A DNA stretch of 32,000 nucleotides, taken from Acaryochloris thomasi RCC1774 (GTDB lineage Bacteria > Cyanobacteriota > Cyanobacteriia > Thermosynechococcales > Thermosynechococcaceae). Below the pieces are notes generated by a model. The model saw nothing but the letters and a program-made list of their open reading frames with translations, was not told where the DNA came from and searched no databases. This document shows, piece after piece, positions 16,214 through 19,540 of this stretch (its first letter is position 1; every line of letters starts with the position of its first letter). Location of the stretch: NCBI RefSeq assembly GCF_003231495.1, contig NZ_PQWO01000005.1, positions 270,001-302,000 on the forward strand, written 5' to 3'. The translations under genes were made by a program, and so were the position numbers.

Positions 16214-16744
16214 TCAGTAAGCACTCAACACTTGTTTCATCATTTCAATGCATCGGATTCGTAGGCCATCTTTCGTCACAAGATGGGATTCGTCCACGAT
16301 CTGATAGCCCTTAGCCTTATAGAAGGGGAAGGCTGTCAAGGAAGCCGTGACCCGCAAAGTCCTGATGTTTCGGGAGCATGCCAAGTGCTCGACCGCATCA
16401 AGTAACTGGCTTCCTATCCCTTGACGGTTGTAGAGAGGATGGATATAAACAGCACTGATGCGGTGTCCCAACAAAGAGGAGGCTCCAACCACTACATTCT
16501 CTAGCTCAGCAACAAACGTCGTTTCACCCCGATATCCACCGCGGCTGAAGTGGCTAATATTGCGATCAACGAGGGCTTCGATTTGATCTAATGAGTAATC
16601 CTTTACGCAGAGAACCCTCAACGCATCAATCTGGACCCGCAAGATTTTCAAAATCTCATCAGGTTGGGCTTGACGTACCGAAAGTGATGGAGTCAGAGAC
16701 TTGTCCATATTCTCGAATTTAAACGAAATGCTCAGGTTCGACAT
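16214..16744 (-). CDS. GNAT-family N-acetyltransferase, divergent from the ars operon
   Basis: 176 aa with motif A (VYIHPLYNRQGIGSQLL) and FYKAKGY. An alternative start is MDKSL at 16708. Confidence 0.75.
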   Translation of the reverse strand: MSNLSISFKFENMDKSLTPSLSVRQAQPDEILKILRVQIDALRVLCVKDYSLDQIEALVDRNISHFSRGGYRGETTFVAELENVVVGASSLLGHRISAVYIHPLYNRQGIGSQLLDAVEHLACSRNIRTLRVTASLTAFPFYKAKGYQIVDESHLVTKDGLRIRCIEMMKQVLSAY

Positions 16745-16776: not shown

Positions 16777-16808
16777 TTGACCTTATACATAGATATAGGG
16801 TTTACGAT
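16777..16808 (+). promoter_or_regulatory. MerR/CueR-type long-spacer promoter with an imperfect dyad operator
   Basis: The sequence is cTTGACCttatacatagatatagggtTTACGATt. TTGACC at 16777-16782 is the -35. A -10-like TACGAT at 16803-16808 (or TTACGA) follows after a 19-20 bp spacer. The dyad ACCtTATA....TATAgGGT spans 16780-16801. The layout parallels E. coli PcopA (cTTGACCTTccccttgctggAAGGTTTAACCT, quoted from memory). Confidence 0.5.
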
Positions 16809-16841
16809 TAAGCCATCTGCAACTCTCTTCCGGTTTAATTC

Positions 16842-17240
16842 ATGCGCGTCAGCGAAGTTGCCCGTCAATTTGACCTCAACGCTCAGACACTCTATTTCTA
16901 TGAGCGCATTGGCCTGATTCCATCGCCATCTCGCAATGCATCGGGCTATCGAATCTTTGCTGAGCAGGATATTGAACGTTTGTCGTTGATTGAGCGTGCC
17001 AAAGCGCTAGGACTCACCCTTGATGAAATCAAAGAAATTCTGCAGCTACAGGAGGGGCAGGGTTTGACCTGCGGTGAGGTCCATCAACGCTTGCTTAAGA
17101 AGCTCCAGCAGATTGAAACGACGATTGCGCAGCTTCAGAAACTGCGAGAAGAGCTGCTGCCGCTGGTGCAGCGATGTGAAACAGCGATAAGTCAGCAACA
17201 GATAGCCACTGACTGTGGCATCTTTCAGCCCGATGAATGA
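16842..17240 (+). CDS. MerR-family (heavy-metal-responsive subfamily-like) transcriptional regulator with three Cys (C77, C112, C125)
   Basis: N-terminal wHTH (MRVSEVARQFDLNAQTLYFYERIGLIPSPSRNASGYRIF), a coiled-coil dimerisation helix, and cysteines placed as in MerR/ZntR/CueR metal sites. Confidence 0.85.
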   Translation: MRVSEVARQFDLNAQTLYFYERIGLIPSPSRNASGYRIFAEQDIERLSLIERAKALGLTLDEIKEILQLQEGQGLTCGEVHQRLLKKLQQIETTIAQLQKLREELLPLVQRCETAISQQQIATDCGIFQPDE

Positions 17241-17329
17241 ACTGAGATCGAAAATCGCGTTCCCTCTCTCTCAATATTTGAAGCCTTCTATCGTTCCTAA
17301 TTCTCTCTGTACTTGAGGTTTGTATTGTC

Positions 17330-18481
17330 ATGATTCAAGCGCGCTCGCCAAAGAGTAAGGCCGTACAGGCCGGTGGTCAACTGAATATTTTTGAGCGCTA
17401 TCTTACCCTGTGGGTGGCTCTATGTATTTTGATCGGTATCGCTATGGGGCGTTTCTTCCCGCAAGTGGCGGTTACCCTTGATGCCTGGAGTATTTATCAG
17501 GTGTCGGTGCCCATCGCTATTTGTCTGTTTTTCATGATGTACCCGATCATGGTCAAAATTGACTTTGGTCAGGCACGACGGGCAGCCCGGACGCCGAAGC
17601 CAGTGGTCTTAACTTTAGTGGTCAACTGGTTGATTAAACCGTTTACGATGGTGGCCTTTGCCCAGTTTTTCTTAGGTCGCCTCTTTCAGCCGCTGATCAC
17701 AGGGACAGAGGTGATTCGCGGCAGTGAAGTCACTTTAATCGATTCCTATATTGCGGGTGCGATTCTGCTGGGGATTGCGCCCTGTACGGCGATGGTGCTG
17801 ATGTGGGGGTATCTCTCCTATAGCAATCAGGGCCATACGCTGGTGATGGTGGCGGTAAATTCTTTGGCGATGCTGTTCCTTTATGCGCCGTTGGGAAGGT
17901 GGCTACTGGCGTCTAATAATTTGGCTGTACCCTGGCAGACGATTGTTTTATCCGTCCTGATCTATGTTGGATTGCCGTTGGCTGCGGGCATGTATTCCCG
18001 CTACTGGATTTTGAAACACAAAGGTCGTGCTTGGTTTGAGAGTGTGTTTCTCAAGCGGCTCAGTCCGGTGGCTGTGATTGCAATGTTGGTGACCTTGGTG
18101 CTGCTGTTTGCTTTCAAGGGAGAGTTGATTGTTCAGCATCCGCTCCACATCGTTTTGATTGCGGTTCCCTTATTTTTGCAAACGAATTTCATTTTCTTGA
18201 TCAGCTACGTGGCGGCGCAAAAGCTGGGGTTAACTTATGAAGATGCGGCTCCGGCTGCTCTAATTGGAGCGAGTAATCACTTTGAAGTGGCTATAGCAAC
18301 TGCTATAACCCTCTTTGGTCTCAACTCTGGTGCCGCACTTGCAACTGTTGTGGGCGTCCTAATCGAAGTCCCCTTGATGCTGATGTTGGTGGAGCTATGC
18401 AAACGCACCGCCTTTTGGTTCCCGCGCTCGCCAGAAAAGGCGACGTTGACTGACCCTCGCTGTATCCATCCGCTGAATTAA
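17330..18481 (+). CDS. acr3: ACR3-family arsenite efflux transporter
   Basis: 383 aa and polytopic. The N-terminus [27 protein letters not shown] and the overall pattern are typical of ACR3/ArsB(ACR3). Confidence 0.9.
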
Positions 18482-18501
18482 TCAAGATAAGGTGATTGAA
18501 C

Positions 18502-18891
18502 ATGAAACGAATGATGTTTGTGTGTAAGCACAACTCGCGGCGCTCCCATATGGCGGAAGGCTTCGCTCGACAGATGAGTCAGGGGCAGGCGGAGGTTGCC
18601 AGTGCGGGACTAGAGGCCAGTCAGGTCGATCCCCTGACGGTGCAGGTGATGCATGAAGTGGGTGTGGATATTAGTGCTCAGCAGTCCCAGCCGCTAGCTG
18701 ATTTCAAAGCTGAAGACTTTGACGTGGTGATCTCTCTGTGTGGATGTGGCGTGAATTTGCCCGAAGAGTGGGTGACCCGAGAAATTTTTCAAGACTGGCA
18801 GCTCGACGATCCAGCCGGGGAAACGCTAGAAACGTTTCGCCGCGTTCGAGATGAGGTGAAAGCCAATGTTGAAAAGCTTCTTAGTCAGTAA
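18502..18891 (+). CDS. arsC: Arsenate reductase ArsC, LMW-PTPase type (Synechocystis-like hybrid with a C-x-C pair)
   Basis: The P-loop is VCKHNSRRSHMAEG (CX5R). A second cysteine pair, SLCGCG, matches the Cys80/Cys82 pair of the glutaredoxin-coupled cyanobacterial enzyme. I prefer the ATG at 18502, which has the SD-like AAGGTGA upstream; the ORF track starts at TTG 18496. Confidence 0.85.
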   Translation: MKRMMFVCKHNSRRSHMAEGFARQMSQGQAEVASAGLEASQVDPLTVQVMHEVGVDISAQQSQPLADFKAEDFDVVISLCGCGVNLPEEWVTREIFQDWQLDDPAGETLETFRRVRDEVKANVEKLLSQ

Positions 18892-19078: not shown

Positions 19079-19540
19079 TTAGAAACCATAGCGACGCCGT
19101 TCCTTTTTCGGGTCATGTGTCCAACAGTTACACCCATTTTCGTGAAAATACACGCTATCAATATCTGTTTTTATATGGACAGAGCAAGTGCATGGTTGAC
19201 CAAGAGCTGCCCTCCAATGGTGATATTGATGTTGATAAGGGACGTTGAAGCAAAATGTTACTTGTGCCTCTTTGAGCCAGCATTCTGGCATCCTATTCGA
19301 TGCCATCGCTCGATGCAGCGCCTGAGTTAGCAACTGGATAGCTGTGTTCAATGTTTCGCTACCTGCCTCTGGATGTACAGTATTCAATGTCAAATGTAGA
19401 ACTACTGTGTCTGTGTTGTTTTGCTCTGCAACGTTGTATAACTTTCCAATAGCCCAATACCCTTGCAAATCAAAGTTTCTACTGAGTGCCCATTGAGTGA
19501 GATTGTTCGCTATTCCCTTGAATTGCTTTCTCCGTGGCAT
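19079..19540 (-). CDS. Orphan hypothetical protein, Cys/His-rich C-terminal half, low-GC gene
   Basis: 153-aa ORF with no family I recognise. Two 60-nt lines counted by hand gave about 35-38% G+C, against about 55-60% in neighbouring genes. Confidence 0.5.
   Translation of the reverse strand: MPRRKQFKGIANNLTQWALSRNFDLQGYWAIGKLYNVAEQNNTDTVVLHLTLNTVHPEAGSETLNTAIQLLTQALHRAMASNRMPECWLKEAQVTFCFNVPYQHQYHHWRAALGQPCTCSVHIKTDIDSVYFHENGCNCWTHDPKKERRRYGF

Follow-up and report, generated by a model that had tools for sequence, protein, structure and literature searches.

A candidate arsenite-responsive MerR-type activator heads the acr3-arsC operon of Acaryochloris thomasi

Arsenic sensing in bacteria is regarded as the domain of the ArsR/SmtB repressors. 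Here we describe an arsenic resistance operon, merR-acr3-arsC, of the cyanobacterium Acaryochloris thomasi RCC1774, in which a MerR-family regulator with three cysteines stands first, ahead of an arsenite efflux permease and an arsenate reductase. The operon lies in a stretch of 32,000 nucleotides (contig NZ_PQWO01000005.1, positions 270,001 to 302,000 of the forward strand), which is called the window below. We consider it probable, from comparison of sequences and predicted structures, that the regulator is a MerR-type activator that responds to As(III)/Sb(III) and positively regulates its own gene, and that the operon is a variant of the ars operon restricted to one lineage. We also lean towards the view that in its subclade the MerR family has its first sensor of a metalloid (As(III)/Sb(III)), one that activates ars genes and has displaced ArsR at orthologous operons within one family.

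The operon and its promoter

The regulator, permease and reductase genes are co-directional open reading frames (ORFs) on the plus strand of the window (Table 1). The first-pass annotation, made from the letters of the window, had placed a MerR-family gene of 132 aa on the same strand as acr3 and 89 nt upstream of it, and the ORF coordinates agree with this exactly. The two resistance genes are well identified by NCBIfam equivalog models. Acr3 reaches 422.8 bits against TIGR00832 (cut-off 282.8), and ArsC reaches 213.2 bits against TIGR02689, the glutathione/glutaredoxin type (cut-off 157.6). The translation of arsC contains the CX5R loop (CKHNSRR) and the CGC pair (LCGCG), and the 5.9-Mb genome holds no other acr3. 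The first-pass annotation had also seen no arsR-like gene in the window. This extends to the whole contig, in which no ArsR-type gene (PF01022) was found, all six copies of the genome being on other contigs.

Ahead of merR lies a MerR-type promoter, with its end 34 nt from the start codon. Its -35 element is TTGACC (16777-16782) and its -10 element is TACGAT (16803-16808), with 20 bp between them, and an imperfect dyad, ACCTTATAC-N4-ATATAGGGT, lies inside the promoter spacer at 16780-16801. An over-long spacer with an internal dyad is a hallmark of MerR-family promoters. The 19-20 bp spacer that holds the operator dyad, typical of the MerR subgroup, is thus present here, and the arrangement is kept in relatives, in which the promoter is conserved nearly base for base. 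Across the cyanobacterial clade of the regulator it mostly stands 51-66 nt upstream of merR. Since the promoter sits upstream of merR, the regulator gene itself comes first in the unit that its product controls. The 89-nt spacer between merR and acr3 shows no conservation among relatives, and neither a sigma-70-like promoter nor a second operator nor a terminator-like hairpin was found in it. The three genes are probably co-transcribed.

The operator appears to serve this operon only. With up to 2 mismatches the dyad is found once in the 5.9-Mb genome, and the few sites with 3 mismatches are without promoter context. A 2-mismatch operator scan was also run in five relatives, with the reversed pattern as a control. 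There was no sign of a wider regulon in these scans, as the extra operator-like sites in A. thomasi (G000), G401, G403, G408 and G426 were at the level of the control. Two of the extra 2-mismatch hits in relatives were inspected, one of which is in a coding region while the other has no -35 element, and they look like chance. Because the operator is unique in the genome and the extra hits in relatives are at chance level, the sequence data support the MerR-type protein as a dedicated, local regulator that is specific to its operon.

ArsR and MerR at orthologous acr3 clusters

Genes for acr3 were searched across 48 genomes of the order, and their flanking genes were read. Conservation of the merR-acr3-arsC synteny in cyanobacteria, which the first-pass annotation had named as a check on its idea, is found in 8 of these genomes (A. 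thomasi, G431, G401, G403, G406, G408, G426 and G402), in one of them with acr3 interrupted. Carriers named by NCBI include a Thermosynechococcaceae metagenome-assembled genome, an Acaryochloris sp. and Acaryochloris marina MBIC11017 (locus L009). The interrupted copy is that of G402, also an Acaryochloris (L063/L176), where a 408-aa transposase-like ORF splits acr3 and where merR and the operator are intact.

The same type of acr3 (Acr3 78-83% identical to that of the window) is found in clusters headed by ArsR in three genomes. The order is arsR-pstS-gapdh-arsJ-acr3-arsC in G422 and arsR-pstS-arsC-acr3 in G424. In G430, which is of the same genus as A. thomasi, one contig carries arsR...gapdh-arsJ-acr3, and a second contig, beginning inside a partial acr3, reads arsC-pstS-merR-trx-arsP_1. 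A fourth genome, G410, of a sister genus, carries arsR-glutaredoxin-arsC-acr3-PTP-like-arsH (PTP, protein tyrosine phosphatase; L155, G410:C132), in which acr3 is of a second type with 35% identity. The ArsR proteins of these clusters have the motif ELCVCDLC in G422 and G424, ELCACDIA in G430 and ELCVCELC in G410. Two acr3 types and two regulator types therefore coexist within one cyanobacterial family, and the same arsenic genes are headed by either a canonical ArsR or a MerR in close relatives. This looks like a regulator swap, in which MerR has come to stand in the place that ArsR holds before the same genes in sister genomes. We regard the apparent swap as the strongest computational argument that MerR does the job of ArsR at this operon.

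Family and cysteines of the regulator

All Pfam domains of the regulator are those of the MerR family, i.e., PF13411 (MerR_1, 68.6 bits), PF00376 (MerR, 53.5 bits) and PF09278 (MerR-DNA-bind, 66.7 bits), and none places it in ArsR/SmtB. A MerR-type winged helix-turn-helix at the N-terminus is recognized by PF13411, PF00376 and Foldseek. PF09278 and an AlphaFold model give the long helix that serves dimerisation in this subgroup as an antiparallel coiled coil, with a short effector loop behind it at the C-terminus. Against the TIGR equivalogs for CueR, CadR-PbrR, MerR and ZntR the protein scores 90-100 bits, all under the cut-offs of 143-168. Because every score is below its cut-off, the regulator belongs to no named specificity group, and it is best described as a heavy-metal-type MerR outside all of them.

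The regulator has exactly three cysteines, C77, C112 and C125. Its best solved relatives by sequence are PbrR691, Bacillus MerR, CadR and CueR. All three cysteines align with the metal-ligand cysteines of PbrR691 (5gpe), and C77 and C112 align with cysteines of Bacillus MerR (4ua1) and CadR (6jgv), for which the printed alignments end before C125. Across 57 sequences of the clade, C77 and C125 never vary, and C112 is kept in at least 90%. The AlphaFold model, made with these 57 sequences, has a predicted local distance difference test (pLDDT) score of 82 and consists of a long helix, 77-117, and then a C-terminal tail. C77 is the first residue of this helix, C112 is near its end and C125 is in the tail. 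Searched with Foldseek, the model finds CadR, CueR and PbrR with template modelling (TM) scores of about 0.7. The first-pass annotation had placed one cysteine where the dimerisation helix begins and the other two in the C-terminal loop, and both the alignment and the model bear this out.

Distribution and cargo of the clade

In an even set of 401 cyanobacterial genomes, homologs of the regulator (E<=1e-25) are present in 28 genomes and in 26 of 156 genera. Apart from that of A. thomasi, none of the 27 homologs in this set has acr3 behind merR. Behind merR, 21 of the 27 have a gene for a thioredoxin-like protein of TIGR00412 ('MTH895/ArsE family') and one for a permease of the ArsP_1 type (PF03773), and some of these loci have a TIGR01244-like phosphatase/sulfurtransferase-type domain between. 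The arsenic-linked regulators come together in a maximum-likelihood tree, where a subclade (support 99/89) holds 8 distinct acr3-linked regulators, an ArsJ-linked one and one orphan. The A. thomasi regulator is inside a 7-member acr3 group (100/93). The ArsJ-linked regulator is that of G407, which is 63% identical and heads genes for an ArsJ-associated GAPDH and for ArsJ, both over their NCBIfam cut-offs. Metagenomic homologs form 24 protein clusters at 63-86% identity. A metagenome scan returned nearly all distant homologs from soil, at 30-35% identity, and a single close locus, with thioredoxin/ArsP cargo.

The thioredoxin-like/ArsP_1 pair has been named ArsE/ArsP and is induced by arsenic in Pseudodesulfovibrio (bioRxiv 10.1101/2022.10.17.512643). 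If our reading of the subclade is true, the wider clade with thioredoxin-like/ArsP_1 operons, in about 7% of the sampled cyanobacterial genomes, might sense arsenicals too.

Two kinds of fusion were seen in the clade. In several cyanobacteria (L038, L054 and L055; P0075, P0080 and P0083) the merR frame runs stop-free into a thioredoxin-like PF13192 domain, which gives fusions of 217-235 aa. In the second kind, seen in the Gloeomargaritales (L010:3998-4597, P0035), the regulator is joined to a MerF-like membrane segment (PF11431). The latter regulator is followed by a MerT-HMA (heavy-metal-associated) fusion and then a zf_CopZ/2Fe-2S 'CopZ_Nterm_CC' protein. Its cargo is thus of the mercury type, and its branch is sister to the acr3 subclade.

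Proposed mechanism

We propose that merR-acr3-arsC is one transcription unit with positive autoregulation. A MerR-type dimer would occupy the dyad that lies in its own promoter, within the over-long spacer of 20 bp. Its effector would be As(III), and probably Sb(III) as well, held in a three-thiolate site. By homology, one subunit may contribute Cys77 to this site and the other Cys112 and Cys125. Coordination by three thiolates is the preference of As(III), as established from R773 ArsR. On effector binding the dimer would untwist the promoter, leading to transcription of merR, acr3 (the arsenite pump) and arsC (the arsenate reductase).

The idea of an As(III)-responsive MerR, which was put forward in the first-pass annotation, is strengthened by the finding of a local operon regulator and by the alternation of ArsR and MerR at orthologous acr3 genes. 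Several observations weigh against it, and they concern the cysteines, the cargo of the wider clade, a characterised relative and an unlinked ArsR. Though the positions of the three cysteines match metal ligands, their pattern is the general soft-metal pattern of MerR, PbrR and CadR, sensors of Hg, Pb and Cd, rather than an arsenic signature. The argument from three cysteines thus loses its specificity for arsenic. Hg(II), moreover, would bind to any three-Cys site. In the same way, the longer loop between C112 and C125 is real, with a spacing of 13 residues and a C-terminal loop 4 residues longer than that of PbrR, but it is not distinctive, as this spacing is the predominant state across the cyanobacterial clade, independent of cargo. 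The majority cargo of the clade (the pair found in 21 of 27) has an unproven substrate. In A. thomasi itself the thioredoxin-like/ArsP_1 pair (L084, G000:C21:17000-25000) has neither MerR nor operator and stands among genes for an MBL-fold hydrolase, a rhodanese, TauE and two YeeE/YedE-like half proteins, which suggests that the role of ArsP_1-type permeases is related to sulfur and not to arsenic. Because of this setting we do not count the thioredoxin-like/ArsP_1 cargo as arsenic evidence. The arsenic case, as we build it from gene neighbourhoods, is that of the acr3/arsJ subclade and the ArsR swap.

Alternative readings

The relative in question is Slr0701, a MerR-type regulator of Synechocystis sp. 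PCC 6803 (Singh et al. 2019, PMC6741143). We identified locus L059 of genome G184 as slr0701, because its upstream region and its C-terminus match exactly the surface plasmon resonance oligonucleotide and the 3' cloning primer of that study. Hg(II) is reported to induce slr0701 and merA, the induction is lost in the mutant, and DNA binding is enhanced by Hg(II) (PMC6741143). Like the window regulator, Slr0701 belongs to the cyanobacterial clade that shares this operator, has an operator of the type CCTTATAC-N4-GTATAGGG before its own gene, is autoregulated, and has a Cys where the dimerisation helix begins and further ones at the C-terminus. In sequence type, the window promoter agrees with the oligonucleotide bound by Slr0701 (PMC6741143). 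This opens another explanation, which we hold to be unlikely, namely that the window regulator is also a sensor of Hg(II) or of soft metals broadly, that its position before acr3-arsC is unrelated to arsenic sensing, and that arsenic induction is absent or comes about via another factor. It would fit with the alignment of the three cysteines to those of MerR, PbrR and CadR, and with the MerT/MerP-like genes behind the sister-group regulator at L010.

However, Slr0701 shares only 46% identity with the window regulator and is placed in another part of the tree, on a long branch. Its 5 cysteines form a CC...CC pattern, whereas the window regulator has 3, and Slr0701 is reported to control merA. 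The phenotype panel of the Slr0701 study consisted of Fe, Cu, Zn, Co and Hg, and the paper makes no mention of arsenic (PMC6741143). The cargo of the acr3/arsJ subclade is solely arsenic-specific (acr3-arsC or gapdh-arsJ). The operon is without mer genes, and no operator was seen at the merA-like gene of the A. thomasi genome. The window regulator also does not qualify as the Hg(II)-responsive MerR proper (TIGR02051), with 96.9 bits against a cut-off of 150.85 and a Cys spacing of 13 against 9. Thus, the clade includes at least one reported mercury sensor, and effector specificity may differ between its branches.

Some further observations were made on Slr0701. It is absent from the arsenic-regulated genes in the accessible part of the Synechocystis microarray supplements, which is weak evidence. 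Within 400 nt upstream of slr1849/merA (L091, G184) there is no dyad of the Slr0701 type, 7 mismatches being the fewest in any candidate. For slr1849/merA a gel shift and a common cis-element have been reported (PMC6741143), and the published 'common element' is not obvious in the sequence. Downstream, slr0701 is followed by a 448-aa ORF (L059:1913-3259) rather than by ars genes. This ORF begins 14 nt past slr0701, has no Pfam or NCBIfam match and would be the cargo of slr0701.

A second explanation is that an unlinked ArsR is the real arsenic sensor and that MerR gives a second input or basal control, which we think improbable. It would parallel Synechocystis, in which the ars operon is under an ArsR (Sll1957) that is unlinked to the operon. 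A. thomasi has six ArsR/SmtB-type genes, and one of these (L002/L179, G000:C30:2992-3336, minus strand) encodes a protein that is 63-68% identical to the ArsRs heading the ars clusters of G410, G422, G424 and G430. It retains two of the three motif cysteines, which weighs against our main reading. However, its motif is ELCVGELC, in which the central Cys of the ELCVCDLC site is replaced, and it adjoins no ars gene. In the ArsR loci read, all eight genomes with merR-acr3-arsC keep only this unlinked CVGELC type (G000, G431, G401, G402, G403, G406, G408 and G426, the last reading EFCVGELC). As an orphan it is present in 40 of the 48 order genomes irrespective of their ars content, with 93-94% identity within the genus. 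Since its presence is independent of acr3, its role is probably a different one. Furthermore, the MerR promoter is the only conserved cis-element at the operon.

Finally, we give very little weight to the view that the clade responds to a thiol-reactive signal that is neither metal nor metalloid (e.g., sulfane sulfur or persulfide) by Cys bridging, with the arsenic genes riding on this signal: the sulfurtransferase-type domain, thioredoxin-like protein and permease in many clade operons and the sulfur-gene setting of the MerR-free pair of A. thomasi speak for it, but it leaves the replacement of ArsR before acr3-arsC and gapdh-arsJ unexplained, and the fold and the Cys geometry are those of metal-sensing MerRs.

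Features of the locus

Table 1. Positions of the promoter and genes of the merR-acr3-arsC operon in the window
Feature	Position	Strand	Remarks
MerR-type promoter	16777-16808	+	-35, 20-bp spacer with dyad, -10
merR-like gene, heavy-metal-type MerR-family regulator, first in operon	16842-17240	+	132 aa; Cys77, Cys112, Cys125
merR-acr3 spacer	17241-17329	+	89 nt
acr3, ACR3-family arsenite efflux permease	17330-18481	+	383 aa
arsC, glutathione/glutaredoxin-coupled arsenate reductase of the low-molecular-weight PTP type (Synechocystis ArsC type)	18496-18891	+	131 aa

The start of arsC is more likely the ATG at 18502, which would give a protein of 129 aa and has a Shine-Dalgarno sequence, AAGGTG, ahead of it. 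Recent horizontal transfer of the operon is not indicated, as its G+C content is 0.51-0.53 and that of the window is 0.515. A divergent GNAT gene (16214-16744, minus strand) adjoins the operator. It does not belong to the unit, as a search of three syntenic loci (L007-L009) gave no match to it, and it is not an ArsN, its ArsN2 match being just 22 bits against a cut-off of 125. Beyond arsC there is an ORF of 153 aa (19079-19540, minus strand) without a family match.

Significance

If the proposal is true, a well-studied family of allosteric regulators gains a new effector, and the regulation of ars genes gains a second logic, i.e., activation with positive autoregulation. MerR promoters are tight and highly inducible, and they are attractive for arsenic biosensors. 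The naturally occurring ArsR-headed and MerR-headed acr3 clusters in close relatives offer a ready comparative system, and Acaryochloris marina MBIC11017 is a cultured strain with the merR-acr3-arsC arrangement.

Comparison with known systems

The first-pass annotation had known of no characterised MerR-class regulator of As(III). We likewise found no characterised MerR-type arsenic sensor in the literature, subscription journals being outside its coverage, and MerR is not mentioned in one review of ars genes.

The closest matches of the window regulator in sequence and structure are the Pb/Cd/Zn regulators of the PbrR691, CadR and ZntR type, with which it shares three aligned cysteines and a dyad of the 22-bp type. 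It differs from them in missing all equivalog cut-offs, in its longer loop and in having no P-type ATPase or cation diffusion facilitator as cargo. In operon architecture the resemblance is to the mer operons of Gram-positive bacteria, in which merR comes first in the operon that it activates (PMC6741143). Common to both are the co-directional regulator in first place, the long-spacer promoter with a dyad and the three-Cys effector site. The cargo is merT/P/A in those operons, whereas it is acr3-arsC here, and the spacing of 9 residues stands against 13 between Cys112 and Cys125, with TIGR02051 below its cut-off.

In function, the operon compares with the ars operons under ArsR/SmtB regulators, such as E. 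coli R773 ArsR and Synechocystis arsBHC with Sll1957. Both kinds of operon carry an arsenite pump and an arsenate reductase, and they would share the presumed inducer and the three-thiolate chemistry of As(III); the orthologous acr3 clusters of the sister genomes are themselves headed by ArsR. The regulators are unrelated in fold and in logic. ArsR is a winged-helix repressor that is freed by As(III), whereas the window regulator is presumed to be an activator of the MerR type that works on a distorted promoter.

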